Source: an archaeon (GTDB lineage Archaea > Iainarchaeota > Iainarchaeia > Iainarchaeales > CSSED10-239). Taken from it: a stretch of 32,000 nt of DNA. Made by a program: the position numbers and the translations under genes. The DNA is taken from contig JBAYPN010000004.1 of NCBI GenBank assembly GCA_041677685.1, positions 1-32,000 of the forward strand, in the 5' to 3' direction. Below are positions 13,655 through 31,045 of the stretch, piece after piece. Under the pieces are notes generated by a model. It saw only the letters and a list, made by a program, of their open reading frames with translations. It was not told the origin of the DNA and did not search any database. The number at the start of each line of letters is the position of its first letter. The stretch's first letter is position 1.

Positions 13655-14844
13655 AAAAATCCTCTCACAACAACAATTGGTGTGTTGGCATCAGCTGAAC
13701 CAGATACCAAGTCAGCTAAAGAACAAACCAAATTTTCAATTTTTCTAGGAGTTGTTCCTTCTGCAGAAAATGAATCTTTCTTTTGTGTTTTTAGAAATTT
13801 CTGTTTTTCAATTTCAATTAATTTTAGAATTTCTTTTTTACTTTTTCCTTCATTATATAATTTCTGCATTAAAAATTTTGTTTTAACTCCAATTCTGTTT
13901 CTATTTTTAATTCCAGGTGTTACTCCAAAGCAAGAAACTGGATCTGCTAGTTCATAGATCCCTGATTCTGGATCCTTATATGCCCCATCCCCATAGATTA
14001 AGACTTCAACGTCTTTTTTAAATTCCTTTTTAATCATTTTTTGTATATTTTTACAAAACACATCTCCATTTTTTGGAGCAAGCTTTATTGTCTCATTAAC
14101 AGGATCTAATATGTTTGAGCCTAACAACCCATATTCAGAATATACTTTTTTAGAAGGGTCATTAAAAACATGTTGTAAGCTAATTGTTTTTTTATATTTT
14201 CTTGCCTTTAAAGCATTTAAAGTATCTTCTCTATGATGCACATTACAAACAATAATTGCATCTGGTTTGTTTTCAACCATATACTTTGTGGAGTTTGCTA
14301 AATAGACTTCTGCTTTTGCACCTTCTTTGTTAATAATGTCTTTATATAAAGAAATATAATCAACAGAAGTTTCAGGATGTATATATCTATTTTTCCCTAT
14401 TTCTTTTTCACTTATTTTATCTTCAAAGCTTTTTTTAAGTTTTTTAGAATAAAATTCTTTGTTAATTATTTGATTTCCTTGTTCATCATCAGGGAACAAC
14501 AATTGAATAATTACTTTACCTTTTGGAACTGTTCTTGCAATTGCTTTTAACAGCATTGAAAATCTGTTTCTTGAAAGTATTGGATAAAGTAAGCCAACAG
14601 TTGAGTCTTCTTTTAGTTTCAATTTTGATTTAATTTGAGTTACTACACTATCAAGTGTTACAAAATTATGTTGTGTAATTCCAACAATTGCTTCAGTTAT
14701 ACAGACAATGTCTCCTGTCTGAATCATTGATTTATTTTTAAGAAAATATTTCTTAATAACATCAGAAATATTATCATCAAAAGTTATTATCCCTGTCTTA
14801 ATTCCAAAAGAAACAACTCCAACATCTTTACTATTAATTTTCAT
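13651..14844 (-). CDS. CofE-like (F420-0:gamma-glutamyl ligase family, COG1478) protein, about 150 aa longer than canonical CofE
   Basis: GDIVCITEAIVGITQ near the N-terminus, VLIYGDGAYKD in the middle, and the C-terminus LADLVSGSADANTPIVVVRGF. All three parallel CofE blocks as I remember them. Confidence 0.5.
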   Translation of the reverse strand: MKINSKDVGVVSFGIKTGIITFDDNISDVIKKYFLKNKSMIQTGDIVCITEAIVGITQHNFVTLDSVVTQIKSKLKLKEDSTVGLLYPILSRNRFSMLLKAIARTVPKGKVIIQLLFPDDEQGNQIINKEFYSKKLKKSFEDKISEKEIGKNRYIHPETSVDYISLYKDIINKEGAKAEVYLANSTKYMVENKPDAIIVCNVHHREDTLNALKARKYKKTISLQHVFNDPSKKVYSEYGLLGSNILDPVNETIKLAPKNGDVFCKNIQKMIKKEFKKDVEVLIYGDGAYKDPESGIYELADPVSCFGVTPGIKNRNRIGVKTKFLMQKLYNEGKSKKEILKLIEIEKQKFLKTQKKDSFSAEGTTPRKIENLVCSLADLVSGSADANTPIVVVRGFF

Positions 14845-16339: not shown

Positions 16340-16441
16340 TTTCTAGCACCAATCTTTTAAAATTTAAATTAATTGTACATTTAATTTTATTTTAAATGTT
16401 ACATTTTGTTTAAAATTACTACAATTAAATAATTTTATTTT

Positions 16442-16627
16442 CTACTCTTCAATTGTAATACACGCAACTGGACAAACATCTGCAGCCTGTCTATTACAAC
16501 CAACCTCTTTTACTTCTGTCTTGATTGGCTTTGGCTTAGCTCCAACAAACTTCCAATTTTCAGGGCAAACTGAAACACAAGCTCCGCAACCAATGCATGC
16601 CTCATTATCTTGTTTAATCTTTACCAT
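16442..16627 (-). CDS. Small 4Fe-4S ferredoxin
   Basis: 61 aa with CIGCGACVSVCP and a distal CPVAC. Confidence 0.8.
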   Translation of the reverse strand: MVKIKQDNEACIGCGACVSVCPENWKFVGAKPKPIKTEVKEVGCNRQAADVCPVACITIEE

Positions 16628-16836
16628 CCTTAAAACACTTCCTTTCTTGTTTTTGTTTTTTCACAATTTTTTTTTAATTTAAATATTCTTCAACTTAATT
16701 TTCATATCAACTATCAGATTAATATTTTCTAATAGCCTCTATCCTATAGATAGAAAATAAACAAATATATAAATGTTTCTTTTTACTTATTAAATAATAG
16801 TCTTACAATATAAAATATAATTACAAAAGTTTAATT

Positions 16837-19068
16837 ATGATAGAAAAGATAAAACCACCAAGAGGAACACCTGGTGAAATATACAAGTCAATCTCTGTTG
16901 ATTCAAGAGACTTCTCTATAGATGAAAATAAACTTTTTAAAAAAAAAGAAAATGGTTATATTCTTTTTTGTAAAAGTATTTATAAAAAATTTCCTGGACT
17001 TGGAAAAAATGGAAAGTACAATTCTGAATATAAGTCTGCAGTTGATTTTCTAAGGTGGGACCTAAAAGCAGAAGAGTATACAGCAGGTACAAAGTTTGTA
17101 TTTTTATTTGGAATACTTGCAGCAATAATTATTTCTTTTTTAATATACATGTATGGCTTAGAGTCTTTAAAATCATTGTTTGGAAACATATACATCCCCA
17201 TAATGATTACCTTTGGTCTACCAATCATAATTTTTATATACATCTTTACTACCTTTCAAAAGTACCCATTAACCCAAGTTGGTTATGAGAAAGTAAGAGC
17301 ATTGACTTTTGTTCCTGAAATTTTAGGGTATATGATAATGTCAATGAAGCTTGTACCAAACTTAGAAAAAGCAATTGAATTTGCATCCAACCATGGTCAC
17401 GGAAAAGTAGCAGATGACCTTAAAAATCTATTATGGGAAGTTAAGGTAGGAATTAAGGGAAGTGTTTCAGAAGCCCTTGATGGTTTGGCATACAAATGGG
17501 GAGAAGTCTCTGAAGAACTAAAAAAAGCTTTAATGAAAATAAGGTCTTCAGTTATTGAAATTTCAGAAGCAAAAAGATACCAAATCCTAGATCAGACAAT
17601 GGATGACACTCTAACCTCAATTAAAGGCAAGTTAGAAGATTATGCAAGAAGTCTATCTCAACCAAGCATGGTTATCTTTTACATAGGAGTTTTACTTCCT
17701 TTACTTTTAATTATTATTCTACCAATTGGTTCTGCATTTTCAGGCTCAGCTCTAGCAAGACCAATCTACCTAATCTTAATTTACAATTTTGCAATCCCCA
17801 TTGGGTGTTTAGTTTATGCAAGAAGCATAATTAGAAATAGACCAGCCACATATGTTCCTGCTGTGATTCCTAATAAACATCCTGACCTTCCTAAAAGAAA
17901 CACAATTAAAATTGGAAAATCTTCAATTAATGTTTTTTTAATAATAATTTTAGTTGTTGGAACACTTGTTATTGGTAGTCTTTTTTTACAATCTAATTTT
18001 GGAAAAACAAAATATAATGTGTTATTAAATGCAGGGTATATAAAAGAAGGAGAATCAATAACTGCTGCAGAATTTAATTGTTCAAAAGAAGAACTTGCCC
18101 TAAAAGCAGAAAATCCAAAAATATTATGTCAAGCTGAAACTGAATTTTGGCAAGACCCTGATAATGATGTAACTCCTTATTTTTTAATCTATGGTCTACT
18201 GATTGCCTTTAGTTTAGGTTTCTCATTATTACTTTATTCTCAAAGTATTTACAAAAGAAAAATTCAACTTGAGTCTGAAAGGATGGAATATGAGTTTAAA
18301 GATGCACTTTACATAATTGCAAGTAGGCTTGGAGAAAATAAACCAATTGAGGATGCCTTAGCACACACTAGGGATTTTTTATCAAAATCATTAATTTCTA
18401 AAAGTATTTTTGCAAAAGCAATTGACAATATTAGGATTCTTGGTTTTAATTTAAATTCTGCATTGTTTGATGAAAATTATGGAGCTCTTAAAAATAATCC
18501 TTCAACAATTATTAACAGTGCAATGAGGTTGATGGTTGATTCTGTACAGTTGGGGGTTTCAGTTGCTGCAAAGACTTTGATGTCTTACTCTATGCAATTA
18601 AGAAACACTGATGAAGTTACAAAGACTTTAAAAGATTTGATTAGTGGAATTACTGGAACCTTAAACAGTATGGCTAAATTTATTGCTCCGATTGTTTTAG
18701 GAATAACTACTGGTCTTCAAAAAATAGTAATCTCAACTCTAACCTCTATTTCAAATAGTGGAGCTTTACAAGAAGTAAGTTCAGCAATTGAAGGTGTAGG
18801 AACTGCAATTGGAGGCACAGTAAACACAGCAAGTATTGAGGGCATGGCAACAATTGATCCAGCAACAATAGCACAACTTGCAAGCTCTACAACTTTTTTG
18901 ATAATTGTTGCAATTTATGTAATTGAGATTGTTATTATTATAACTTACTTTACAACAATGATAGAGGAAGACAACCTTGTTCTTGCTAAACTAAAGATTG
19001 CAAAAACATTACCAGTTGCAGTTATTTTGTTTATCTTAACAACTATCTTTACAAATATGTTATTTTGA
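16837..19068 (+). CDS. FlaJ/TadC/PilC-like type IV pilus platform membrane protein with two T2SS-F-like domains
   Basis: Two soluble helical modules (VPEILGYMIMSMKLVPNLEKAIEFASNHGHGKVADDLKNLLWEVKVGIKGSVSEAL, and YEFKDALYIIASRLGENKPIEDALAHTRDFL...NIRILGFNLNSAL). Each is followed by TM bundles. The gene sits directly upstream of the pilin genes. Confidence 0.6.
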   Translation: MIEKIKPPRGTPGEIYKSISVDSRDFSIDENKLFKKKENGYILFCKSIYKKFPGLGKNGKYNSEYKSAVDFLRWDLKAEEYTAGTKFVFLFGILAAIIISFLIYMYGLESLKSLFGNIYIPIMITFGLPIIIFIYIFTTFQKYPLTQVGYEKVRALTFVPEILGYMIMSMKLVPNLEKAIEFASNHGHGKVADDLKNLLWEVKVGIKGSVSEALDGLAYKWGEVSEELKKALMKIRSSVIEISEAKRYQILDQTMDDTLTSIKGKLEDYARSLSQPSMVIFYIGVLLPLLLIIILPIGSAFSGSALARPIYLILIYNFAIPIGCLVYARSIIRNRPATYVPAVIPNKHPDLPKRNTIKIGKSSINVFLIIILVVGTLVIGSLFLQSNFGKTKYNVLLNAGYIKEGESITAAEFNCSKEELALKAENPKILCQAETEFWQDPDNDVTPYFLIYGLLIAFSLGFSLLLYSQSIYKRKIQLESERMEYEFKDALYIIASRLGENKPIEDALAHTRDFLSKSLISKSIFAKAIDNIRILGFNLNSALFDENYGALKNNPSTIINSAMRLMVDSVQLGVSVAAKTLMSYSMQLRNTDEVTKTLKDLISGITGTLNSMAKFIAPIVLGITTGLQKIVISTLTSISNSGALQEVSSAIEGVGTAIGGTVNTASIEGMATIDPATIAQLASSTTFLIIVAIYVIEIVIIITYFTTMIEEDNLVLAKLKIAKTLPVAVILFILTTIFTNMLF

Positions 19069-19199
19069 AAATATATATTTGAAATTTAAATTATAAGGTT
19101 AGGTTTAGGTTATAAAAAATAAAAAATTAATAATTGAAAAAGAAAGATAAAAAGAATTATTCAAAATAATTGAAAAAAAATTATAAAAAGAAAGAGAAT

Positions 19200-19703
19200 A
19201 TGAAACTTGTAAAACATACAGAGAGAGGACAAGCCTTTGAAGTTTATAGACTATTGATTGCATTTATCATAGCTGTAGCTGTTATGTCAATCATTATTGT
19301 TATGGTTCAAAAAACAAATAAAGAATCAATTCTTTTAAGTTATCAAAATTTAGAACAAGGTTTTATCTCTGCAACTAAAAGTCCTGGGACAAGTAGTAAA
19401 ATGCCTTTTGTTATTGAGGATCTAAAATTGAAAGGAATGATAACTAAAAAAAAACTTTCAACAATTAGTGGACTTAAAGAAGAATGTATTATCTTTGATG
19501 CAGGACCAGGAATTGAAAAAACAGATATTGGTGTTGAGATTAATAAGATTTTAAAATTTGATACAACAGTTTATTGTAATTTTGGAAATGTTGATATTTT
19601 AGAAACTCCAATTATTCAGTTGTTAGAAAATAATACCCTTGAGAATTGCCCAGTATATTGTATAGTCTTTATGAACAAAAATCCAAAAGATATTTATCCA
19701 TAA
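19200..19703 (+). CDS. Archaeal type IV pilin-like protein (class III signal peptide)
   Basis: MKLVKHTERG|QAFEVYRLLIAFIIAVAVMSIIIVMV. Four Cys in the C-terminal domain. The track start at 19170 is TTG, so I chose the ATG at 19200. Confidence 0.65.
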   Translation: MKLVKHTERGQAFEVYRLLIAFIIAVAVMSIIIVMVQKTNKESILLSYQNLEQGFISATKSPGTSSKMPFVIEDLKLKGMITKKKLSTISGLKEECIIFDAGPGIEKTDIGVEINKILKFDTTVYCNFGNVDILETPIIQLLENNTLENCPVYCIVFMNKNPKDIYP

Positions 19704-19773
19704 AATTTAAAATAAGAATTAAAAACTATAATTATAAAAATAGAATCTAAAAAAAATAAAATTGAAGAAATTT

Positions 19774-20277
19774 ATGTTAAAAAAGAAAAACATTTTTAGT
19801 AAATTAAAATATCTAATAATTGCAATTATAATTTTAGTTCTTGGTTATTTTTTTGGGATTATTATTCTGTCAGTAATTGCAATAATAATTGTTTTAATTT
19901 CTATATTTTTTATAATCAGTTTGTTTTTTAGTAAAAGTCTATTAGCTTTAACAAACAGAAAGGTAAGATTGTTTATTGCTATGATCTTTTCAGGAGCTTT
20001 AAGTTATCTAATAATATATTTGTTAAGAAATCAGATTTTTAAAATTTCTTCTCAAGTTACACAAATAATTTTAATTTGGGTAATTGCTACACTGATGTTT
20101 GGAACATTATGGAATATTCTTGTAATTAGTAAAAGGAGAGTGTATTTAAAGGATAATGTTATAGATTATAATAAGATTGGAGAAAATAGAAATTTAAAAT
20201 TTAGAGATTTTGTTTTTATTTTAGTAATTCCAACAATAATCACTTTAATTTTTAATGTTCTTTATGTTGTTATTTAA
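19774..20277 (+). CDS. Hypothetical polytopic membrane protein embedded in the pilin cluster
   Basis: About 5 hydrophobic segments. The ATG at 19774 is preferred over the TTG at 19762. Confidence 0.45.
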   Translation: MLKKKNIFSKLKYLIIAIIILVLGYFFGIIILSVIAIIIVLISIFFIISLFFSKSLLALTNRKVRLFIAMIFSGALSYLIIYLLRNQIFKISSQVTQIILIWVIATLMFGTLWNILVISKRRVYLKDNVIDYNKIGENRNLKFRDFVFILVIPTIITLIFNVLYVVI

Positions 20278-20282
20278 ACAAG

Positions 20283-20322
20283 ATACATTTAAATATGTTT
20301 TGTCTTAAATTTTAAATATAAT
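20283..20322 (+). promoter_or_regulatory. 40-bp block with two tttaaata TATA-like boxes; putative promoter of pilin copy A
   Basis: Identical 40-mer atacatttaaatatgttttgtcttaaattttaaatataat is repeated at 21280-21319, in both cases upstream of a pilin start. Confidence 0.5.
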
Positions 20323-20378
20323 ATTAAATTTTAAAATCTAAAAGTTAATGTTTATATAATAAAAATAATATTTATTCT

Positions 20379-20384
20379 AGGAGG
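20379..20384 (+). promoter_or_regulatory. Shine-Dalgarno-like AGGAGG
   Basis: aggagg lies 8 nt upstream of the ATG at 20393. Confidence 0.6.
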
Positions 20385-20392
20385 AAAATAAT

Positions 20393-20950
20393 ATGTCAAA
20401 TTTAATTAATCAAAAAGGTCAAGCTTTTTCAACCTTTCAATTATTAATTGCAGCTGTAGTTGCTTTAGCTTTACTTGGTGTTCTAATGCCAATTATCATG
20501 GGTAACTTTTCAATAGGTAAAAGTCCAAGTGATTCTGCACAACAATATGCAAAAACACAAATTAATAATGCTGGTAGTTTAAATTACACAGACACATTAA
20601 AATTTAAAAAAGATGATTCAATCTCAGCAACAGGTGTGGCTGATGGAATTGATGTAGACAGAGACCAAGTTTATGTAGTAGTTCCAACGGATCTAATTGG
20701 TAACACATTTAGTGATCCTAGTACTTCAAGTTATAAACAAACAAAATATTTAAAGAGTACAAAAGCAGATTACAAAATTGGTGTTATTTGTGATTATAAA
20801 GAAAGTATAGAAGTAAGTTTAGGATATAATGGTCTTACTGGTGGACCAAATAATGAAGATGATTTTTTCTCAATAATTAAAGATTTAGATGATTTTAAAG
20901 ATCTTGACAATAGCATAAAAGTTTGTATCCTATTTCCAAAGAGAGGATAG
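20393..20950 (+). CDS. Archaeal type IV pilin, candidate major pilin (copy A)
   Basis: MSNLINQKG|QAFSTFQLLIAAVVALALLGVLMPII. It has its own promoter-like block and the strongest RBS in the cluster. Confidence 0.7.
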   Translation: MSNLINQKGQAFSTFQLLIAAVVALALLGVLMPIIMGNFSIGKSPSDSAQQYAKTQINNAGSLNYTDTLKFKKDDSISATGVADGIDVDRDQVYVVVPTDLIGNTFSDPSTSSYKQTKYLKSTKADYKIGVICDYKESIEVSLGYNGLTGGPNNEDDFFSIIKDLDDFKDLDNSIKVCILFPKRG

Positions 20951-20990
20951 TAACTTATAAAAAATATAATTTAGAAAGAAGAGAAATATT

Positions 20991-21197
20991 ATGAATAAAA
21001 TAAAATTAAAGTTTAAAAGTATCTTAGAGGATAACAAAGCTCAAGCAGAGTCAAACAGTATCTTCTTTCTAATTATAATTGCTATTGTTGCAGTTGTCCT
21101 AATTGCAATTGTAAAACCAATGTTTAACAAATCAGTTAAAGCCTCAGCAAAACAAGCAAACCTCCCAAATCAAGGTGTTACCCAACCTTTAAAATAA
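20991..21197 (+). CDS. Mini pilin-like protein, 68 aa
   Basis: EDNKA|QAESNSIFFLIIIAIVAVVLIAIV followed by only about 27 residues. Confidence 0.45.
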   Translation: MNKIKLKFKSILEDNKAQAESNSIFFLIIIAIVAVVLIAIVKPMFNKSVKASAKQANLPNQGVTQPLK

Positions 21198-21213
21198 GCA
21201 TAAATGTATAATA

Positions 21214-21245
21214 TCAATTACAATTTACTTTTATAAATTATTTTA
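21214..21245. repeat. 32-bp block tcaattacaatttacttttataaattatttta, repeated at 21910-21941
   Basis: Exact match read directly. It marks the 3' boundary of both duplicated units. Confidence 0.85.
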
Positions 21246-21279
21246 ATTTTTAATGTCTTATAAAAATTATACATCTAAA

Positions 21280-21319
21280 ATACATTTAAATATGTTTTGT
21301 CTTAAATTTTAAATATAAT
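21280..21319 (+). promoter_or_regulatory. Second copy of the 40-bp TATA-like promoter block
   Basis: 40/40 identical to 20283-20322. Confidence 0.5.
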
Positions 21320-21347
21320 TATATTAATATAAAAAAAGAGAATAAAT

Positions 21348-21904
21348 ATGTTAAATTTAATAAATCAAAAGAAAAGGGCCTTTCAAACTTCCAAATATTT
21401 ATATTACCTATAATGATTTTAATTTTACTTTCTTTTTTAATTGCAGTATTACCTGTAAGTCCTGACCCTAAGTTGAAAAATATAAATTTAGTTATAGAAC
21501 ATTCCATAAAAGCACAAATTAATACTACTGGTAGCTTAGGTTACACAGACACATTAAAATTTAAATATAAGGATTCTATTTCTGCAACAAGTTTGACTGA
21601 TGGACTTGATGTAGACAGAGATCAAGTTTACGTAGTAGTTCCAACGGATCTAATTGGTAACACATTTAGTGATCCTAGTACTTCAAGTTATAAACGAACA
21701 ATATATTTAAAGAGTACAAAAGAAGATTACAAAATTGGTGTTATTTGTGATTATAAAGAAAGTATAGAAGTAAGTTTAGGATATAATGGTCTTGCTGGTG
21801 GATCAAATGATGAAGATGATTTTTTCTCAATAATTAAAGATTTAGATGATTTTAAAGATCTTGACAATAGCATAAAAGTATGTATCCTATTTCCAAAAAG
21901 ATGA
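21348..21904 (+). pseudogene. Pilin paralog (copy B) interrupted by a frameshift
   Basis: The ATG at 21348 reads MLNLINQKKRAFQTSKYLYYL then stop. The frame of ORF 21413-21904, read upstream, gives ...KSKEKG|LSNFQIFILPIMILILLSFLIAVLPV. Removing one copy of the aaaag/aaaag duplication at 21367-21376 gives MLNLINQKG|LSNFQIF... in frame to 21904. Confidence 0.6.
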
Positions 21905-21909
21905 TTGTT

Positions 21910-21941
21910 TCAATTACAATTTACTTTTATAAATTATTTTA
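21910..21941. repeat. Second copy of the 32-bp boundary block
   Basis: 32/32 identical to 21214-21245. Confidence 0.85.
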
Positions 21942-22012
21942 TTTTCATAAAATATTTAAAAACACTAAAAATCAAAAAGCTTTTTAATTACTTCTTTTTA
22001 TATTTAAGTATT

Positions 22013-22618
22013 ATGCAAAAGATATTATCCACAATCAAAAAAGATAAAGCACAAGTAAGTGCTCCCTTTGAACTACTGGTTGCAATTATTGTTATGGCCT
22101 TTGTTATTCTTGCAGGAACCTATGCCCTAAACAACCTTTCAGAAAACACATGCCTTGGAAATAAAAGACAAAACTTTAGCGAACTTGTAACTGCCTTAAG
22201 AGATGTTACCTTAGGTTCAGATTTAACTTACAGAGATGTAGATTTTAGAACAAAGGCTTGCTTTAATGAAAAGTATGAGTTTGTGCAACTAAATACTTAT
22301 GAAGACTCAGGTAAATGTAGTGCCTACTGTGGAACAGGTTCTAATTGCCTATTACTTGAATATAAATATCAAAAAGATGATGATTATAAATACCCAATAG
22401 AACCAATCTGCACACATCTTCCCTCAACTGTTAACTTTGCAACTAAACTTTCAGAATGTGGGGACGAAGATATACTTGAAGAAGATTATATGATAATAAA
22501 TCCAAAAGGGCTAACAAAAGATAACCAAGGAAACATCCCCTTAGGTAGATATAAGATTTACAGAGCAAATCAAGAGAGTGCAAGCACGACTGTTATTTGC
22601 CTTCTTAAAAAAAAGTGA
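22013..22618 (+). CDS. Cys-rich pilin-like protein (class III signal peptide)
   Basis: MQKILSTIKKDKA|QVSAPFELLVAIIVMAFVILAG. About 9 Cys in the C-terminal domain. The TTG extension from 21905 was rejected. Confidence 0.6.
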   Translation: MQKILSTIKKDKAQVSAPFELLVAIIVMAFVILAGTYALNNLSENTCLGNKRQNFSELVTALRDVTLGSDLTYRDVDFRTKACFNEKYEFVQLNTYEDSGKCSAYCGTGSNCLLLEYKYQKDDDYKYPIEPICTHLPSTVNFATKLSECGDEDILEEDYMIINPKGLTKDNQGNIPLGRYKIYRANQESASTTVICLLKKK

Positions 22619-22626
22619 AATAAGAT

Positions 22627-23307
22627 ATGTTTGAATTTACCTTATCAAAATTAAATTTATTAATCTTTGTTACAGCAATAGCAGCAATTATGCTATTTTT
22701 TCTAAACACAGTAAATGCAAATTTAAAAACAAGACAAAGTTTTGAATTAACCTACAAGATTGGCAAAGAGCTAAAATCAGGGATTGATGGAAAAAGTTAC
22801 TGCTCCATAAAATATATAAAAATTCCAAAAACAATTAAAACTAATCAAGGCTCTTCAAACATATTTAATATAAATTATAAATTTAATATTGCACAATATG
22901 ATTATGAAAATCCCAACATCAATTCTTCACTTAACAAAAAACTAATAATTGCAATTACTGATCAAAAAAATAAAAAGATCTATGCAGCCTATGATATTGA
23001 CTTTGAAGGAAACTTTACTTTCTATGAATCAGAATATGATTTAGATACTGGAAAATATAACTTTCTAGAAAAAAAAGATGTAGGGATCTATGATCCTCTA
23101 AAAGTAAAAAGTATAGACACAACTCTTTTGTTTATTAAAAAAATAAATAATGGAAAATTAGATTACTACATTATACCTTGTGAGAAAAAAAATTCAATAT
23201 ATTCTTGTAAAGATTTTGTATGTAACAATGATGATGGATTATTTGATGATATTACCTGTAAGGATGTAGAGTTATGCATTACCGACGTAGGAGAAAATAC
23301 AACATGA
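22627..23307 (+). CDS. Pilin-like / N-terminally anchored protein
   Basis: MFEFTLSKLNLLIFVTAIAAIMLFF. The leader is very short and has no G/A-Q site. Several Cys near the C-terminus. Confidence 0.45.
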   Translation: MFEFTLSKLNLLIFVTAIAAIMLFFLNTVNANLKTRQSFELTYKIGKELKSGIDGKSYCSIKYIKIPKTIKTNQGSSNIFNINYKFNIAQYDYENPNINSSLNKKLIIAITDQKNKKIYAAYDIDFEGNFTFYESEYDLDTGKYNFLEKKDVGIYDPLKVKSIDTTLLFIKKINNGKLDYYIIPCEKKNSIYSCKDFVCNNDDGLFDDITCKDVELCITDVGENTT

Positions 23308-23837
23308 TATTTAAAAAAAGAGAAAAGGGTTTTATTGGGGCAATTGGTGATGACCTACCAAGCCTTATTCCAATTTTTATTGGTTTAATTATCTTTTTTT
23401 CTGTATTTTTAAGCACATACAATCTCTATAAAGATAAAACAAATCTCTATTCTTTAGAGCAAGAAGCAGTTATAATTTCTTTAACTCTAAAAGAAGAACC
23501 AATAATTTCAAGTTATGAGATCTTTCAACATCAATGTGATTTAGTAAACACTAACAAAAATTGGACAGCTTTTGTTACAGACTTAGATCTAAATTCAGAT
23601 AATCACAAACCCATAGACACCTCTGATATAGAAAATTCAATTGTTGCTTTTATAGATGAGGTTTCAAATGATAAAAACATTTTTATCTGCAACAATAAGT
23701 TTAAAGACAAAGTCTTAGACACACAAGATAATTTTTTTCAAACACAAAATAGAAAGATAGTATACATGTTTCCAATAACCTTACAAGAAGACAACTTTGC
23801 AAAGACTAAAAAATTATATGTAATTGTTTGGGAGTAA
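23304..23837 (+). CDS. Pilin-like protein (class III-like signal)
   Basis: MIFKKREKG|FIGAIGDDLPSLIPIFIGLIIFFSVFL. ATGA start/stop overlap with the upstream gene, and GGAG 11 nt upstream. Confidence 0.5.
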   Translation: MIFKKREKGFIGAIGDDLPSLIPIFIGLIIFFSVFLSTYNLYKDKTNLYSLEQEAVIISLTLKEEPIISSYEIFQHQCDLVNTNKNWTAFVTDLDLNSDNHKPIDTSDIENSIVAFIDEVSNDKNIFICNNKFKDKVLDTQDNFFQTQNRKIVYMFPITLQEDNFAKTKKLYVIVWE

Positions 23838-23844
23838 AATAGAT

Positions 23845-24609
23845 ATGATACCAATTATTAAAAATAAAAAAGCACAAGCAGCAATCACAGATGCTTTATT
23901 TTTCTTAACAATAATTGTGACCTTAGCAGTTATTCTCTTTAAGTTTTCTGCAACCTATGGAGACAGAGTTACTCTTGCAACAAACAATCTTTACTTTAAA
24001 GAATACTCCAATTCTGCACTAAAAACTATCTTCTATGCAGAAATTCCTCTTGACTTTTCAAAAGAAATTAGTTCTTCAAAAGAAACAGACTACCTAATGA
24101 CTGCAATTAAGGAAGATTATTTCTCAGATATGCAGATTGGAAGTTCAAAAGATATTAACACCATGATGATAATTAATAATTCAGATATCTCCAAATATAA
24201 TCTTTATAATCTCATTAAAGTTGTAATGAAGCCTTTACCAAATTATGACTATATGTTTTATCTATACAACACTAATGATTCTAAATTTGAATTTTTTACC
24301 TTAAAAGTTACAAACTTTGATTATGAGAAAGCAGTGTTTCCTCATCAACTAGACATTAATGCAACAGATTCAAATTATTATCTTTGTGATCCTCTAAGTT
24401 ATGCAACAATTAGGGATAGTTTTTCTGAGATCAGTGACATCTACTCTTCTTCAATTCCATTACAGTTTCCAGTTACTATTGGAGATAGAGACACAATCAA
24501 CATGACAGCAACATTTGCGATTTGGCCAGCATCAGTAACATTAACCAAAACAGATGAAGAGAATAACAACATAATTAGTAACTTTAAATGTAAAGCTTAC
24601 ACAGACTAA
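23845..24609 (+). CDS. Pilin-like protein (class III signal peptide)
   Basis: MIPIIKNKKA|QAAITDALFFLTIIVTLAVILF. GGGAG RBS upstream. The ATG at 23845 is preferred over the track start at 23824. Confidence 0.55.
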   Translation: MIPIIKNKKAQAAITDALFFLTIIVTLAVILFKFSATYGDRVTLATNNLYFKEYSNSALKTIFYAEIPLDFSKEISSSKETDYLMTAIKEDYFSDMQIGSSKDINTMMIINNSDISKYNLYNLIKVVMKPLPNYDYMFYLYNTNDSKFEFFTLKVTNFDYEKAVFPHQLDINATDSNYYLCDPLSYATIRDSFSEISDIYSSSIPLQFPVTIGDRDTINMTATFAIWPASVTLTKTDEENNNIISNFKCKAYTD

Positions 24610-25358
24610 AACTTTAAACCCAAGCCATCATCAGAATTATCAATTTCAAAATCATCTAATTCTTCGTCTTTTAAAAGATCTTTAATATCGTCTTCTTTCT
24701 TTCTAGTCTTTGATTCTTCTTTCTGTTTTACTTTTTTATTTTCAGAGTCTTTTTTAATTTCTTCTTTTTGCCTATCTCTTTTAGATCCTTTTTTAGAATC
24801 TTTTTTACTTTCTTTGTCTTCTTTACTTTTAATTTCTTCTTCTAGTTCTAGATTTTTTTCTTTAGAGACTTTATCTTTCTTCATCTGGTCTCTAATATCA
24901 TTTGATTCAACTTGAGAATAAACATCTTCAACTAAATTTCTTAGATCTTCTTTATTTTCATTAATATTTAAATTTTCTTTTGATCTATTTTCTGAAGCCC
25001 TATAATGTCTATTTGTCTTAATTGCACTTTCAATTTTATTTTTTTCAACATCTATATTTTTATTTTTTAATTGTGTGTAAATAGCCTCTGCAATTACATT
25101 AACATCTGGTTTTATCATTTCAGAAAGGTTAGTTAATATCTTATTAATAATTATTGCCTTTTCTTCATTGTTAACAACTTTAGTTTTTTTATCTTTTTTA
25201 AAGTCAAGATTTTCTAAAGTAATTTCACTATTATCAATACTATTATAGTTATCTTTTTTCTTAGAAGTTATATCAGGCTGAGAAGTATAGACTATCTCTC
25301 CATCCTTATATTTTCTATAATGTCTTCTTTCTCTTCTACTTAGCTTGTTATTATCCAT
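24606..25358 (-). CDS. Hypothetical highly charged (K/E/D-rich) protein with an acidic C-terminal tail
   Basis: 250-aa ORF of low complexity (KEDKESKKDSKKGSKRDRQKEE...), ending DDFEIDNSDDGLGLKF. Confidence 0.45.
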   Translation of the reverse strand: MDNNKLSRRERRHYRKYKDGEIVYTSQPDITSKKKDNYNSIDNSEITLENLDFKKDKKTKVVNNEEKAIIINKILTNLSEMIKPDVNVIAEAIYTQLKNKNIDVEKNKIESAIKTNRHYRASENRSKENLNINENKEDLRNLVEDVYSQVESNDIRDQMKKDKVSKEKNLELEEEIKSKEDKESKKDSKKGSKRDRQKEEIKKDSENKKVKQKEESKTRKKEDDIKDLLKDEELDDFEIDNSDDGLGLKF

Positions 25359-25399
25359 AATGTCTTCTTTCTCTTCTACTTAGCTTGTTATTATCCATA
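25317..25399. repeat. Perfect 40-bp tandem duplication (2.07 copies) spanning the start codon and first 13 codons of the 24606-25358 gene
   Basis: Positions i and i+40 are identical for i = 25317-25359, read directly. Confidence 0.9.
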
Positions 25400-25525
25400 T
25401 TTAAAATATTCCATTTATAAACATTTATATTATATACAATATATATTATATAATAATGCTTTTAAATGTTTCAATTTATATATATTATAGATTTTAATTA
25501 AAAATAAGATAAGAAGATCAAAACT

Positions 25526-26026
25526 ATGGAAAATAATATATTTCAAATAATACTAAATTATGTTTGGTTTATAATCAAATTGTTATTCTATGCTTTAATT
25601 TTAGCAATACCTCTTACATTAATAACTCTACCTTTAAGGAATTGGTTTTTAAAAATTAATAAAAAAATTGAAAATTTCTTATTTAGTTCTTCAATTATTA
25701 CTTATGTTATTAGCTATCTACTGTTGTTAGCATTCTACTTTATACCGATCATAAATTCAGGTTCTTTTCAAACAACAGATAAGTTATTGATTTTTATTTT
25801 AATCCACATAGTAAGGCTTGCAATTATTAATTTACTAATAACAGCAATAATTATTATCTTTATATTTATAATTTTATTTATTTATGAAAAGTTTAATAAA
25901 AATTCTAAACAATTTAATTTCTTTAATTTATGGAAAAGTACAGCTATAGGTTTAATTATTTTTTTCATAATTATAATCTTATTTCCAAAATTAATAGCTA
26001 TGTTAATATATTTAATATTTGTATAA
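25526..26026 (+). CDS. Hypothetical polytopic membrane protein
   Basis: 166 aa, 4-5 hydrophobic segments. It ends 18 nt upstream of the giant ORF. Confidence 0.45.
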   Translation: MENNIFQIILNYVWFIIKLLFYALILAIPLTLITLPLRNWFLKINKKIENFLFSSSIITYVISYLLLLAFYFIPIINSGSFQTTDKLLIFILIHIVRLAIINLLITAIIIIFIFIILFIYEKFNKNSKQFNFFNLWKSTAIGLIIFFIIIILFPKLIAMLIYLIFV

Positions 26027-26044
26027 ATAATAGGATGAGTTTAC

Positions 26045-29000
26045 ATGAAGTTTGAAAAGAATGTCTCAAAGATAATATCAATATTTTTTTTAATTCTATT
26101 TATAAATAGTATCTTTGCATATAATGTGGATTTTTCAAGATTTGACAACCCCACAGAAAGTGCAAACAATTTCTATTTACTAGATTCTGATATTAAAACT
26201 GACTTTGGAGGTGGTTGTTATACTGAAGAACTTCCTTCAGATGCAGTTGAAAGGATTTGGAATGAGTTGTTGGTTAAAGGTTTTAAAGTAGACATAGTTT
26301 CTTCAGACCAACCAGCAAAAACAGATAGAGACTCACTTGAAAAAAGTGATGTGATGCTAACAAACCAGGATAGTAAGGGTGGAGACATCATCATGAAAAA
26401 AGAAATGCCTTCCCAAGAAATGGATCCTTTAGAGATTCCAACTATTTTAGGTCAAAGCTGTTATGGTCCATTTTCATATGGTATTAATTTGACAGAAACA
26501 ATTAGGATTGGAAAATGTGAAAATGATACTAATTCTGCATGTTATCTAGAAAGTGATGGACTCTTTAGACAAAATGGAAATGAAGGCTTTTGGACAGAAA
26601 TGGAAGCTGTTGGTAAAGATGTTCTTGACATGGTTGGAGTAAATATTTTAAAACAGGAAGCAGGAGAAATAATTAACCCAGACTATGATTATAATACAGA
26701 TGTTGATCTAGGAATCTTTACTGAAATGTCCTATGAAGAGTTAGCTTTTTTTAAAAGTATACAACTAGATGATGCAAATAAAGACACAATCAATTTAGAA
26801 AGAACAAAAGCAATCATGGACAAAGCAATTCAAAATAGTGTAAAAACAGAAATTTTTAATTCAGGAATGGAGACAACCTGTAGTGGTGAAAATTGTTATA
26901 TTAATGTGTATTCTTTGTTTGATAAAATGTTTAATCAGTTTTTCTCAGCAGACCTTGTAGCAACTTCAGTCTCACCTTTACTATGGAAATTCTCTTCAAG
27001 AATTTTTTCAGGAATTGGAAATGTTGCAAAAAAGCAATTTGGAATTGAGTCTGCTGGTCAAAAGTTATTAAAGAATGGAACTATTAAGAAAGGTCACTTT
27101 TGGGATAATGTTCTAAACAATAATAATAGTCCTATGAAGGCTCTTAAAAAAACTATGGATATTAGAGTTGCAGAAAGAAATATTGGAAGATATGCAGATA
27201 ACCTTTCTTCAAGTTATTCATCTATTGAAAAACAACTAAACAGATATGATCTAAAACCACAATTTGAAAAATATCTAAAATCTTTAAAATCAAAAAAGAA
27301 TATTGAAGAGATCACAAATGAATTTTTTAAGTCTGCGGAGTTTACAAAATTAAACAAACCCCAACAAAGAATCTTCTTTGAAATTGCTCAAAAGTATCAA
27401 ACAAATTTAAAGATCACACAAATTTTCCAAGAACAATTAGGTAAAGATATTGATGATATTTTGAGTGCAACAACAACTGTTAGAGGTGCATCAATTCCAA
27501 GAAAAGATATTCTTTCAAACTCCAAATATACTTTAGATGATTTTTATAGATCTTTGACAAAAGAAGAATATGAGACTCTTCTTTCTAAACAGCAAAAAAT
27601 GAATCAACTAAACAAAAGTTGGGGAGATTACACTAACGGTCATGTTTCTTGGGATGATGGTGTAGAAAATTTAAATGTAGTTAAGAATAGAAGTTTTACA
27701 ATTCATAATCCAGCAACTGGAGAAGATGAACTAACACTTATTAACAAAGTTAAAAAATTAGATCAAACAATTCCTGGTAGCTTAGGAGAACTGCCAGCAG
27801 GAAGTAAAGCCTTAGTCCCAACAGACCCTACAAAATCTATAGGAACAGGTTTTGACAAAATGGCACAAACCAAAAAAGTAACAGTTACCTTCTCAGATGG
27901 ATCAACAGCAGAAATCACAAAATTGATTCCATATAAAGAATCTGAAATCTCAAGCATTGGACAACAATTCTTTGCAAGTGATTTACCAAAGTTCCAAAGT
28001 AGACCTGACATCTATATTGAATATTTATCAAAAAGTGGAGCTACAAAAAAAGTAAGAGCAACAAACCTTATAGTTGATGATATTGATCAAGTAGGCAGCT
28101 TAAAATGGTTTTCTGTAGATGATGTTGCGATGTTGACTGATGATGAAATTATAAAATATGGTTATGATCCTTTTGAACTTGCTTATGGTTACTCAACTAC
28201 AAAAGGAACAGGAATTATAAAAACTATGGATGCTGTTAATGACAAGGTTGTAAAGGTTATGGAAGACCAAGGTTGGGTAACAGGAAGGGGAGTTAACTGG
28301 ATTAACCAACAAATGAAAGCTCAAGACACGTCCTCTTACCAAAAGAAAGCATTTAACATGTTAACACGTAATGGACAAGCATATATAAAAAATTGGGTTT
28401 ATTGGGAAGTTCAGACAGCAGGAAATACTCTTCCATTTATTGGAGATACTTTCTCTAAATATAGTATGTATCAATTACCAGAAACTTACACTTCTGTAAA
28501 AATAGATCACCAACTTTCAGGAGAAATCTACAATGATTCATATATTGATTTCTTTGTAAACACAGGTTCTGATCAAGGGGACCTTTTTATGCAATACCTT
28601 AATTCCATGGTTTTCTGGTTAGTAAATATTGGAAAAGAAGTCTTAGACGAAACTGACTGGAAAGCAACTCAAGCAATAAGCGATTGGGGTAAGCAAATAA
28701 CAGAAGGGCAAATAAGAAGAAGCTCAGTAGATGATGTTGCAGTCTTTACAGATGGTGAGAACGGAGGTTGTGATAAGGCTTGCTCAATTAAAATAGGAAA
28801 TTCTCAACTCTTAGAAAAAACAACTCTTGAAAAATCCCTAAAAACAGACACCAATGTGGAAAATCAGACACCAATGCCTCAAAAGTTAGAAAAAGTAAAC
28901 ATCATTTACAGTACCCCAAGCGGAATTACAATTCCAAATTATATTCTTGAAAATACTGATCCAAAGAACATAGAAGAAGAAGGACAAACATTAATTTCTT

Positions 29001-31045
29001 TCTCACACCATACAGATTATTCAGGATCACTGGCTGGTAAAAACACAAAGGATGCAGACAAAGTTAATTTGATTACAGCAATTGAAAATGAAGAAACCTG
29101 TTCAGCTAAGATAAGAGACTTAGAAGTTTTAGGAGTACCAATTGGTTTTACAACAAGCTGGACTGGTAAAAATTATAGAGCAGGTCTTGTTGCAGCAACC
29201 TACACAACTCTTGCTTACACTGTTCTGTCAGCCCCACAACACAGAATTTTACTTGGAACAATTTTTGGTGTGCTTATCCCTCAAAGTCTAATAATCCCAC
29301 AAGTCCACAATTGTGTAGATGATGAAGAAGGTTATTACACCCACATCTTTGTTTCAAAAGAAGAATATGAAAGAATAGAAAAAGATCCAAAAAACAAAAT
29401 TGGAGACTTGATTTCAAAAGGTGCAGAAGGTATTGAACAAAAAATAGAAGGAGTAACCAAAGGCACACAACTAGAGGAATCTGTTAAAAAAACAACACAA
29501 GATGTTAAGCAATTTGCAGAAACAAAAATGAAAGACAACCCAATTGTTCAAGCAAGATTTGAAACAAAAGGAAATTCTTCAGCCTCAATTAATGGTAGAC
29601 TGTTCTTCTTAGAGCTTGGAAAGAATACCACTTGTAGGGCAAGTGCATATAATGACAAGGGTGTAGAGTACTTAAAGAATAATCAATTAAATGAAACATT
29701 AATTATAAATAAAGAAAATGGAACCTTAGATATTCTTGATTCAGATGGCACTCTTAAAAACATAATTGATAGTAAAAACAAAGACTGGGTCAGATTAATG
29801 GCTACAAATTTAGGAATTCCAGCAAAGGTTATTCCCCACAGCCTAAGTTACATCCCACTTCCTGATGACAACTCTCCTTTGTTTACAATGGATATTTATG
29901 GAAATCTTTCAATTGAAAATATGAGCTTTTTAGATTGCTTTAGAAAAAACTATGAGGCACAGACAGGTTTAGAGTTAAGAGGTAATCAATTAACAGACAT
30001 CTTAGGTAGTGTGAAGATGGCAACCACCACAAACCCACTTAACCCTTCTACTCAATATGACATGATACCAAAAGGTAAAGACAATGTTAATGAGATTCTG
30101 GCAGAAGGAGTCCCAAGAAAGTCAGCTCAAGGCAATTCTGCAAAGATGACAATCTTAGGAGACAGATACACAAAGTTATACCCAGTTAATAATAAAGAAG
30201 AGACTTTTGGTCAAAATATCTCAATTCAATTTGAAAGAGGTCAGTTGATCTATAATGGGGAAAAGAATAGTTACATCCTTTGGGTTGAACAAACCTACTC
30301 CATGCATCAATCTGAAATTGGAGGGCTAAACACTTCTGTTAAAAAATACACAAATCCAGAAACTGGTTGTGAAGAGTTTGCACTTGGCTTTAGTGTTAAC
30401 CCTGTAGAGAATAATGAAGATGCAAAAAATAAATCTAAAGAAATGAACAAAGCTTTAGAAAAGGTAGGTCCTTTCCAATTGTTTGAAACTGCAACAAAAA
30501 CCTTCATATTTTATACAACTCCTGCTCCTGAGTGTGAGAAGAGAATGAAGATTATTGATAAGCTTACAGGAAAGGTAATAACTGACCAAGCAATTACAGA
30601 CATTATTGAAACCCCAAATGGAATGATTGTTAAGACTGCTGATGGGGCTGAACATAACTTTGAGTTTAGTGCAGAAGATGGAGTCCCAAAATTAAAATAT
30701 AATGATGAACTTGAAACCTTACTTTCTGCTCAAGGTAAAAATGGATCCTTTTGGTATGACCCTGCAACTGGTAACTGGTATACAGAGAATGGACACCTTA
30801 TCCCTTTTGACCCACAATATAAGGATGGAATGATGTTTAAAACAGGAGAGGATGGTAAAGTTTATGGAACTCCTGCAGAAAACCCCATGAATATTAACAT
30901 AGGAAGTTCAGGTTCTGAGAAAAGTGGTTTTAATATACCATTGTCTCCAGAAAAAGTTATTCCACTATCTTTATATTTGTTCATAATCATAATGTCAATA
31001 ATGTATATAAACAACAGAAAAGGGAATATAAAAAAAGAGAAATAA
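26045..31045 (+). CDS. Giant (1666 aa) secreted, C-terminally membrane-anchored surface protein of unknown family
   Basis: Sec-type signal MKFEKNVSKIISIFFLILFINSIFA|YN. C-terminal TM VIPLSLYLFIIIMSIMYI followed by the basic tail NNRKGNIKKEK. At least 15 N-x-S/T sequons and locally paired Cys. Confidence 0.75.
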   Translation: MKFEKNVSKIISIFFLILFINSIFAYNVDFSRFDNPTESANNFYLLDSDIKTDFGGGCYTEELPSDAVERIWNELLVKGFKVDIVSSDQPAKTDRDSLEKSDVMLTNQDSKGGDIIMKKEMPSQEMDPLEIPTILGQSCYGPFSYGINLTETIRIGKCENDTNSACYLESDGLFRQNGNEGFWTEMEAVGKDVLDMVGVNILKQEAGEIINPDYDYNTDVDLGIFTEMSYEELAFFKSIQLDDANKDTINLERTKAIMDKAIQNSVKTEIFNSGMETTCSGENCYINVYSLFDKMFNQFFSADLVATSVSPLLWKFSSRIFSGIGNVAKKQFGIESAGQKLLKNGTIKKGHFWDNVLNNNNSPMKALKKTMDIRVAERNIGRYADNLSSSYSSIEKQLNRYDLKPQFEKYLKSLKSKKNIEEITNEFFKSAEFTKLNKPQQRIFFEIAQKYQTNLKITQIFQEQLGKDIDDILSATTTVRGASIPRKDILSNSKYTLDDFYRSLTKEEYETLLSKQQKMNQLNKSWGDYTNGHVSWDDGVENLNVVKNRSFTIHNPATGEDELTLINKVKKLDQTIPGSLGELPAGSKALVPTDPTKSIGTGFDKMAQTKKVTVTFSDGSTAEITKLIPYKESEISSIGQQFFASDLPKFQSRPDIYIEYLSKSGATKKVRATNLIVDDIDQVGSLKWFSVDDVAMLTDDEIIKYGYDPFELAYGYSTTKGTGIIKTMDAVNDKVVKVMEDQGWVTGRGVNWINQQMKAQDTSSYQKKAFNMLTRNGQAYIKNWVYWEVQTAGNTLPFIGDTFSKYSMYQLPETYTSVKIDHQLSGEIYNDSYIDFFVNTGSDQGDLFMQYLNSMVFWLVNIGKEVLDETDWKATQAISDWGKQITEGQIRRSSVDDVAVFTDGENGGCDKACSIKIGNSQLLEKTTLEKSLKTDTNVENQTPMPQKLEKVNIIYSTPSGITIPNYILENTDPKNIEEEGQTLISFSHHTDYSGSLAGKNTKDADKVNLITAIENEETCSAKIRDLEVLGVPIGFTTSWTGKNYRAGLVAATYTTLAYTVLSAPQHRILLGTIFGVLIPQSLIIPQVHNCVDDEEGYYTHIFVSKEEYERIEKDPKNKIGDLISKGAEGIEQKIEGVTKGTQLEESVKKTTQDVKQFAETKMKDNPIVQARFETKGNSSASINGRLFFLELGKNTTCRASAYNDKGVEYLKNNQLNETLIINKENGTLDILDSDGTLKNIIDSKNKDWVRLMATNLGIPAKVIPHSLSYIPLPDDNSPLFTMDIYGNLSIENMSFLDCFRKNYEAQTGLELRGNQLTDILGSVKMATTTNPLNPSTQYDMIPKGKDNVNEILAEGVPRKSAQGNSAKMTILGDRYTKLYPVNNKEETFGQNISIQFERGQLIYNGEKNSYILWVEQTYSMHQSEIGGLNTSVKKYTNPETGCEEFALGFSVNPVENNEDAKNKSKEMNKALEKVGPFQLFETATKTFIFYTTPAPECEKRMKIIDKLTGKVITDQAITDIIETPNGMIVKTADGAEHNFEFSAEDGVPKLKYNDELETLLSAQGKNGSFWYDPATGNWYTENGHLIPFDPQYKDGMMFKTGEDGKVYGTPAENPMNINIGSSGSEKSGFNIPLSPEKVIPLSLYLFIIIMSIMYINNRKGNIKKEK

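Follow-up and report, generated by a model that had tools for sequence, protein, structure and literature searches.

Introduction

The archaeal S-layer glycoproteins, of which the PGF-CTERM protein of Haloferax is an example, are built from a signal peptide, a long ectodomain, a Gly/Ser linker, a short motif, a transmembrane (TM) helix and a basic tail. Within the DPANN archaea, the SPEARE proteins of Nanohaloarchaeota are very large, are exported by an organism of reduced genome and are suspected of a role in cell–cell contact; protease, adhesion and repeat domains can be recognised in them, and they differ from strain to strain. Large ancillary proteins have also been described in archaeal type IV pilus loci, including the DUF2341 PilY-like adhesins of Methanococci (Makarova, Koonin and Albers 2016; PMC4858521) and, in the loci of Thermoproteales, a large "S-layer-like" protein with a C-terminal TM segment and conserved cysteines (PMC4858521). 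For DPANN archaea, type IV pilus "dark matter" islands have been reported that abound in unannotated proteins and also encode "specific surface proteins" (Makarova et al. 2019; PMC6393860). Here, a stretch of 32,000 nucleotides (nt) from an archaeon of the Iainarchaeota/Diapherotrites (positions 1 to 32,000 of contig JBAYPN010000004.1, assembly GCA_041677685.1; hereafter the window), AT-rich with ca. 27% GC, was analyzed around a gene encoding a surface protein of 1666 amino acids (aa), hereafter the giant protein. We consider it somewhat probable that this protein is a type I membrane protein specific to the phylum and belongs to an Epd/Tad-like archaeal type IV pilus system as its dedicated surface accessory; judging from its sequence and gene context, it would act there either as an adhesin or as an S-layer-like anchor.

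The giant protein resembles the ancillary proteins described in 2016 in being large, secreted, C-terminally anchored and provided with conserved cysteines, and its pilus locus resembles theirs in its numerous fast-evolving pilin-like genes, a putative TadC/FlaJ-like platform and, in distant relatives, an ATPase, with function deduced from context. By contrast to those proteins, its family is confined to Iainarchaeota/Diapherotrites, and its members are much larger (1300–1770 aa), are paired in most loci with a protein of four TM segments (4-TM protein) and are far better conserved than the adjacent pilins. Tandem domain repeats, as in the giant adhesins made of Ig, cadherin or beta-helix arrays, were not found in the giant protein. 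Unlike SPEARE proteins, the members of this family show no recognisable domains, have a fixed length, are conserved phylum-wide and are fixed to a pilus locus.

Results

A two-gene unit closes a pilus-like gene cluster

The giant gene (26045..31045, forward strand) is preceded on the same strand by a gene encoding a 166-aa protein (25526..26026), and both open reading frames (ORFs) are exactly as given in the initial annotation, which had already pointed out the small polytopic membrane protein ahead of the large one. The two genes are separated by a gap of 18 nt and a Shine-Dalgarno-like AGGATGAG lies ahead of the ATG of the giant gene; they therefore form a two-gene unit, in which the 4-TM protein is the predicted co-transcribed partner of the giant one. 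Hydropathy analysis of the 166-aa protein revealed four strongly hydrophobic segments, and no match to it was found in Pfam or NCBIfam. A homologue or positional equivalent of 161–191 aa lies directly upstream of the giant gene in most loci, distant ones included, and no conserved catalytic-looking residues were seen in this protein across loci.

The initial annotation had named a chimera or an assembly artefact as what would undo its description of the giant protein. Independent assemblies contain the same 1666-aa sequence as well as more than 20 homologues collinear with it over the full length, and the G+C content at third codon positions (GC3) of the giant gene, 0.224, lies inside the range of the neighbouring genes. 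A chimera, an assembly artefact and a recent or horizontal transfer were therefore excluded.

The giant gene is the last of a conserved cluster of ca. 14 kb that begins 9 kb upstream, beyond the coordinates covered by the initial annotation. The order of the cluster is a platform gene, a run of pilin-like genes, a divergent gene for a Lys/Glu-rich protein, the 4-TM gene and the giant gene. The first gene (16837..19068, forward strand) encodes a polytopic membrane protein of 743 aa, which we take as a divergent FlaJ/TadC/PilC-like platform on the basis of a match to Pfam T2SSF that falls below the cut-off of the model (18.9 bits versus 25.2, E=0.0015). The same match, also sub-threshold, was obtained for three of six platform orthologues, with a best E-value of 3.2e-4; a profile search of the platform against the PDB returned no match. 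Across loci the platform protein is 37–69% identical.

Nine small genes follow on the forward strand (19170..24609), with orthologues in the same order in related loci. The N-terminal sequences of six of the nine consist of a short basic stretch, a [KR][GA]Q or [KR]GF motif and a hydrophobic helix of ca. 20 residues. On the strength of this motif, these six genes are putatively type IV pilin-like with class III signal peptides; no pilin model of Pfam or NCBIfam matched the small genes of the run. One of them (20991–21197, forward strand) encodes a 68-aa protein that, from its N-terminal sequence, is the probable major pilin and matches Flp/EpdE-type major pilins in size. The two-gene unit is separated from the pilin run by a gene on the reverse strand (24606..25358) for a 250-aa Lys/Glu-rich, probably cytoplasmic protein, which is a conserved positional member of the cluster and is hereafter called the antisense gene. 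Pfam scans of the window ORFs with a length of 80 aa or more found neither a T2SSE ATPase nor a prepilin peptidase (PibD/FlaK/EppA, Peptidase_A24); prepilin peptidases are often encoded elsewhere in the genome. No archaeosortase gene was found in the window, and a 281-aa ORF at 4972–5817 considered for that function was rejected as a soluble Lys-rich protein.

The cluster is kept together across the phylum

All seven loci viewed in detail (L001–L007) show the gene order of the window, from the platform through the pilin-like genes and the antisense gene to the 4-TM and giant genes. In L001–L003, with homologues of the giant protein at 55% and 39% identity, the order is the same and every gene is orthologous to its counterpart in the window. 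In the more distant L004–L007 (25–34% identity) the cluster is intact despite changed flanks, which comprise a V-ATPase operon, PAC2, riboflavin genes and a second T2SSE/T2SSF system; in these relatives the V-ATPase operon, PAC2 and riboflavin genes replace the AspRS and AP endonuclease genes that flank the cluster in the window, where the AspRS gene begins at 31540, past the giant gene. In each of the seven loci, class III-like N-termini were observed for the majority of the small genes, among them one for a Flp/EpdE-sized pilin of 44–76 aa. In L004, L005 and L006 a T2SSE ATPase of 761–773 aa directly adjoins the platform gene, such an ATPase was found by tblastn in L043 and L060 too, and a prepilin peptidase gene lies ca. 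10 kb downstream in L004. At the corresponding place in the window (16400–19068), ferredoxin and AP-endonuclease genes are found beside the platform gene where distant relatives have the ATPase.

The linkage was then counted over GTDB species representatives together with loci fetched earlier. At least two of four pilin-like marker genes lie upstream on the same strand in 33 of the 35 loci with at least 5 kb of upstream DNA; of the two exceptions, one is a contig that ends too early and the other a locus too divergent for BLAST, in which pilin-like N-termini are present in the gene calls. The platform was present in 20 of the 22 loci with at least 9 kb upstream. The recurring order and the linkage over loci point to a type IV pilus-like cluster in which the giant gene has a fixed place at the end; in the clade of the window, the ATPase gene has presumably been relocated.

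The antisense gene has orthologues at the same place in closer loci and is replaced in distant ones by genes for low-complexity proteins of 455–734 aa (L004 8151–9518, L006 7432–9636 and L007 5405–7414, reverse strand). Its product is always of low complexity and Lys/Glu/Pro-rich, ranging from 225 to 734 aa; two of the distant versions end in a zinc ribbon of four Cys pairs, and some versions have TM-like segments at the N-terminus. Distant Iainarchaeota also have a second type IV filament-like module, not present in the window, which adjoins a PAC2 gene at a distance of a few kb downstream from the giant gene (L004 16679–19917, L005 19625–22131, L007 13105–16041). Two short T2SSF proteins accompany its T2SSE ATPase, which in L004 and L007 carries a 4Fe-4S ferredoxin domain at the N-terminus. 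A gene of the Exosortase_EpsH family touches the cluster at the edge of L005 (1–57).

A single-copy family found throughout the phylum

A first set of homologues consisted of the identical 1666-aa protein and 27 proteins of 1439–1772 aa, most of them aligning over 99–100% of the query. None of these proteins contained a Pfam domain, and the source name of every one was "hypothetical protein". An exhaustive phmmer search with aa 761–1666 retrieved 176 cluster representatives (clusters at 50% identity) at E≤1e-3, 91 of them at E≤1e-30. In the full-length members listed, it is the C-terminal end of proteins of ca. 1200–1730 aa that is matched, and every named member is a "Candidatus Diapherotrites archaeon" or an "archaeon". 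When the N-terminal domain alone was used as query, only an identical partial NCBI entry was returned.

Distribution across related genomes, a check that the initial annotation had proposed, was assessed by a scan of GTDB species representatives. It returned 55 loci, labelled Candidatus Iainarchaeum, Diapherotrites, Candidatus Forterrea multitransposorum or "archaeon" and including the original single-cell genome of Ca. Iainarchaeum andersonii, so that the family is found throughout Iainarchaeota/Diapherotrites. Apparent second copies within one metagenome-assembled genome were mostly the same gene split over contig ends, and full-length identity of the giant protein across the phylum is 27–60%. 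The giant protein is a single-copy protein of the whole phylum Iainarchaeota/Diapherotrites, and not a fast-evolving strain-specific adhesin.

Export signal, membrane anchor and conserved residues

The giant protein begins with a Sec-type signal peptide (aa 1–25; 26045..26119), recognised by hydropathy and by conserved n-, h- and c-regions, with predicted cleavage after NSIFA. The alignment shows this signal (NSIFA followed by Y) to be conserved among homologues, with no [KR][GA]Q motif of class III. At its extreme C-terminus the protein has three parts, as judged by hydropathy and alignment: a Gly/Ser-rich linker followed by a juxtamembrane motif, [FL]-N-[LI]-P-[SL]-x-P-E (30896..30955), leads to a TM helix with a Lys/Arg-rich cytoplasmic tail (30956..31042). 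The [LI]-P-[SL]-x-P-E part of the motif (30935–30955, aa 1631–1637) stands directly before the helix and basic tail, with P1632 kept in 116 and P1635 in 102 of 121 family members. In the same 121 proteins a Kyte-Doolittle (KD) hydropathy of at least 1.6 was reached at the N-terminus in 107 and at the C-terminus in 118, in agreement with the Sec signal and the C-terminal TM segment with basic tail that the initial annotation had read from a single sequence. Six C-termini were compared with the NCBIfam sorting models, and yielded one sub-threshold match to PEFG-CTERM (15.3 bits versus 25) over the TM part. Sorting signals of the sortase and archaeosortase types share the tripartite layout of this C-terminus, but no curated sorting model matched it.

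The protein contains 14 cysteines, including the close pairs 158/166, 279/284 and 909/913, which bear out the locally paired cysteines reported earlier. All 14 are invariant or nearly so in 24 closer homologues, and C58, C166, C1019, C1090 and C1298 are 94–100% conserved over 121 full-length members. Family-wide conserved residues in these 121 proteins are mainly Cys, Gly, Pro and Trp, together with E969, a pattern that appears structural rather than catalytic. Taken with the export signal and the anchor, these features support the assignment of the giant protein as an exported, membrane-anchored and probably disulfide-bonded cell-surface protein.

N-glycosylation sequons had been noted as at least 15 in number. 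Twenty N-x-S/T sites were counted, versus 17.3 expected from composition, and only two or three of them are positionally conserved; their presence is thus confirmed without enrichment and, because the count equals the chance expectation, it carries no signal. A hydrophobic stretch at about nt 29170–29310 had likewise been proposed as a membrane-inserting or fusion-like segment. The stretch exists (aa 1044–1087; 29174..29305), but it reaches TM-like hydrophobicity (KD 1.6) in just 23 of 121 members, with a median KD of 1.32, and the proposed membrane role was not supported. It contains conserved Pro, Gln and His and usually Asp, and is modelled by AlphaFold as a hairpin of two helices with low confidence. 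A membrane-fusion protein of the type of pleolipovirus VP5 or fusexins was rejected on the basis of this unconserved hydrophobicity, of an insignificant structural match to VP5 (E=0.18) and of the lack of any significant match to the N-terminal half in the viral library BFVD.

Domain organisation and predicted structure

Searches of the giant protein against Pfam gave a single sub-threshold match, to the PorZ beta-propeller, which was rejected as a chance match since it was found in one of 24 homologues. NCBIfam returned nothing above threshold, a MiiA motif match of 16 bits being disregarded as sub-threshold, and neither the single protein nor a 24-sequence profile found a match among PDB sequences. 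Pfam searches of distant members of the family did not identify any family either, and models for PilC/PilY1, DUF2341 and vWA were not matched at E≤0.1 in the giant protein, 23 homologues and six distant members. The absence of recognisable domains put forward in the initial annotation is in line with these searches. The same applies to the absence of a tandem repeat pattern: BLASTP of the protein against itself at E≤10 produced no internal repeat and no off-diagonal match, and profile self-alignment of the C-terminal domain revealed no significant repeat and no blade repeats.

Conservation profiles and AlphaFold2 models, run on 28-sequence alignments, divide the protein into four regions. The Cys-rich, membrane-distal N-terminal region (aa ~55–330; 26207..27034) contains six cysteines and invariant Cys, Gly and aromatic residues, is retained in distant homologues and was modelled with low confidence. 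It is followed by the most variable region, a helical bundle with an inserted beta domain (aa ~370–745; 27152..28279), modelled with a predicted local distance difference test score (pLDDT) of 75–93; its column identity of 0.34–0.43 is the lowest, and conservation reaches its minimum over aa ~330–750. A conserved central region (aa ~780–1110; 28382..29374), again of low AlphaFold confidence, contains the motifs DFFxNxGSDQGD, FSHHTDY and CVDDEEGYYTH, as well as Cys909, Cys913, Cys1019, Cys1090 and the invariant E969. The membrane-proximal C-terminal domain (aa ~1165–1600; 29537..30844) is the most conserved part, with column identity of 0.6–0.8, and is predicted to be all-beta, with ca. nine groups of four strands over aa ~1210–1590 (pLDDT 80–92). 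Segments modelled with low confidence, aa 26–370 and 761–1165, add up to about half of the protein.

The models were compared by halves with known structures using Foldseek, following another check suggested in the initial annotation, and no clear match to a characterised S-layer or adhesin family was obtained. For the N-terminal half nothing significant was found in the PDB, the best matches being FlgL (E=0.067) and HRPV-2 VP5 (E=0.18, probability 0.12), nor in BFVD; the insignificant matches included flagellar-junction, flagellin, VP5 and phage proteins. For the C-terminal half, the top PDB matches were nearly all beta-propellers (WD40, Kelch, tricorn and designed six-blade proteins). These matches are weak and local (E=2e-4 to 1e-2, probability ≤0.75, template modelling score ≤0.15, root-mean-square deviation ca. 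20 Å), and the C-terminal domain may only tentatively be called propeller-like. No PDB fold match to S-layer proteins was obtained with Foldseek.

Other features of the window

The AT-rich divergent intergenic region between the antisense gene and the two-gene unit (25359..25525) is, from reading of the sequence, the presumed promoter region of the unit. A scan for bacterial-type promoters and terminators, which does not apply to archaea, remained at background, and no tRNA or Rfam elements were found within the window. A 40-nt tandem duplication (25309–25388, 95% identical) extends across the start codon of the antisense gene, and its upstream copy would encode the same first 14 residues, then a stop.

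Inside the pilin run, a gene at 19762–20277 (forward strand) encodes a polytopic membrane protein of 171 aa, conserved in the closer loci L001 and L002, which is the second small membrane protein of the cluster. The run also contains a segmental duplication of ca. 0.65 kb (20280–20950 versus 21277–21904), which copies the pilin-like gene 20393..20950, with 98% identity over an upstream element of 43 nt and 92% over 300 nt of coding sequence. The spacing of the two copied parts differs by 40 nt (997 versus 957), and L001, the closest related locus, has one copy. The second copy, a truncated pilin duplicate (21413–21904, forward strand), may be a decaying pseudogene, since it lacks a class III N-terminus and the copy spacing is altered.

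Two further genes lie on the reverse strand. The first (13651–14844) encodes a 397-aa protein of the F420-0:gamma-glutamyl ligase family, in which a Pfam model of 218 positions spans residues 14–395, an extent that implies a large insertion or duplication in the domain. The second (10656–11234) encodes a stand-alone protein of 192 aa whose sole match is to the 3'-5' exonuclease domain of family B DNA polymerases (PolB_exo2, RNase_H_2).

Discussion

The initial annotation had suggested that the giant protein is an S-layer or a host-interaction protein. Its description as an exported and anchored surface protein stands, but the pilus context that defines the locus had been missed. The topology of the protein, the gradient from a conserved proximal to a variable distal part and the invariant linkage to both a pilus cluster and a 4-TM partner are the reasons why a role as a pilus accessory is favoured. 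Because its signal is of the Sec type and lacks the class III motif, the giant protein is exported like any secretory protein and does not enter the filament as a pilin. The C-terminal helix and short basic cytoplasmic tail, preceded by the Gly/Ser linker and LPxxPE-type motif, hold it in the membrane. Export route, anchor, conservation pattern and linkage are read from the sequences and their comparison; the docking partners and the role as adhesin or envelope element are inferences. The conserved cysteines would form disulfides outside the cell. As suggested by the conservation gradient and the gene linkage, the membrane-proximal all-beta domain could dock on the 4-TM protein and/or on the base or minor pilins of the filament. 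The variable helical and beta middle part and the Cys-rich N-terminal head might then point outward, as an adhesin or an S-layer-like envelope element working with the pilus.

Several observations weigh against this proposal. The antisense gene lies between the pilin operon and the giant gene, for which reason the latter is best viewed as a separate transcription unit. The clade of the window itself has no ATPase in the cluster, the assignments of pilins and platform rely on motifs and sub-threshold matches and not on curated models, and synteny among closer genomes could in part be a matter of simple vertical descent. Location at the pilus tip is hard to reconcile with a C-terminal membrane anchor, unless the anchor is cleaved. 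Finally, AlphaFold confidence is low for roughly half of the protein (aa 26–370 and 761–1165), in which an enzymatic or other domain may have been missed.

A first alternative is that the giant protein is the main S-layer glycoprotein of Iainarchaeota and covers the whole cell, being Sec-exported, C-terminally anchored and possibly processed and lipid-anchored at the juxtamembrane motif; adjacency to the pilus genes would then be a mere co-organisation of envelope genes. We regard this as a serious contender, although an unlikely one. The succession of signal, long ectodomain, Gly/Ser linker, motif, TM helix and basic tail in the giant protein is that of archaeal S-layer glycoproteins, including the PGF-CTERM protein of Haloferax volcanii, a substrate of the archaeosortase ArtA. 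Single-copy, phylum-wide occurrence would also suit an S-layer protein, as would a GC3 slightly above the local mean, a trait shared with the pilin genes. Moreover, archaeal type IV pilus loci have been listed as repeatedly having S-layer-like proteins in their neighbourhood (PMC4858521). Against this, the Pfam, NCBIfam and self-BLASTP searches revealed no known S-layer domain and no Ig-like repeat architecture, and sequons are unenriched and mostly unconserved. In comparison with the glycoproteins that have C-terminal sorting signals, no CTERM model was matched, no archaeosortase gene is present in the window, and the [LI]P[SL]xPE motif differs from the PGF, PEF, VPXXXP and PIP motifs. Also against an S-layer protein, the gene is the second of a bicistronic unit behind a small membrane protein, and not a strongly expressed monocistronic gene, full-length identity of 27–60% across the phylum is high for an exposed lattice protein, and the pilus linkage survives rearranged flanks on both sides.

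Within the framework of a pilus accessory, a more specific proposal may be made, which we put forward as speculative and rather doubtful in its entirety. The 4-TM protein, the giant protein and the pilus could constitute a phylum-wide host- or surface-contact organelle, in which the giant protein would be a membrane-tethered, non-homologous counterpart of PilY1, coupling to the pilus base through its proximal beta domain and recognising a partner cell through its variable distal part. The LPxxPE motif would in that case be an undescribed sorting or processing signal.

Quite improbable, in our judgement, is a closer functional analogy to PilY1/PilC, whereby a propeller-like C-terminal domain would bind a minor-pilin complex and the protein, released from its anchor, would be carried at the pilus tip, with its N-terminal part binding a substrate or the host. 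Like PilY1/PilC and DUF2341 proteins, the giant protein is big, is not a pilin, is encoded next to minor-pilin-like genes (33 of 35 loci), has a C-terminal all-beta domain that may be propeller-like and is more variable in its N-terminal part. In bacteria, a tip and priming complex is made up of PilY1 and minor pilins (PMC7541494), and PilY-like proteins have been proposed for Methanococcal loci (PMC4858521). The best C-terminal Foldseek matches are almost all beta-propellers, the predicted strands form ca. nine four-strand units, and the juxtamembrane motif could be a processing site. However, the propeller similarity is weak and local, with a best E-value of 2e-4, the Pfam PorZ propeller match occurs in one of 24 members and no blade repeats are apparent at the profile level, so that the fold itself is tentative; unlike PilY1/PilC and DUF2341 proteins, the giant protein matches none of the PilC/PilY1, DUF2341 and vWA models. 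It also has a C-terminal TM anchor, which PilY1 is not known to have, and no protease or sortase gene is present in the window. Least supported, and highly improbable, is that the giant protein is an unrelated surface protein (for nutrient capture, an enzyme or a host-membrane fusion device) with a pilus adjacency devoid of functional meaning, for which the separate transcription unit, the acidic/His motifs FSHHTDY, CVDDEEGYYTH and DGSDQGD with the invariant E969 as a possible metal or active site, and the moderately hydrophobic helical hairpin of the model may be invoked, but against which stand the pilus linkage in 33 of 35 loci despite changed flanks, a set of family-wide conserved residues made mostly of Cys, Gly, Pro and Trp, an HH motif that is not universal, the unconserved hydrophobicity of aa 1044–1087 and the lack of significant similarity to fusion proteins or enzymes.

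Large ancillary proteins of archaeal pilus loci are a known kind; what is new here is this family, its 4-TM partner and the juxtamembrane motif, of which no description was found in the literature searched. The archaeal type IV pilus accessories thereby gain an unannotated family, whose 4-TM partner is conserved and whose C-terminus has what may be a new sorting motif. Iainarchaeota/Diapherotrites are uncultured organisms with genomes of ca. 1 Mb, and may be free-living or symbiotic. The giant gene accounts for ca. 0.5% of a genome of this size, occurs in practically all members, is tied to the pilus cluster and is better conserved than the adjacent pilins. The giant protein is thus a strong candidate for a core element of surface building or attachment in Iainarchaeota, and represents a target with defined domain boundaries.

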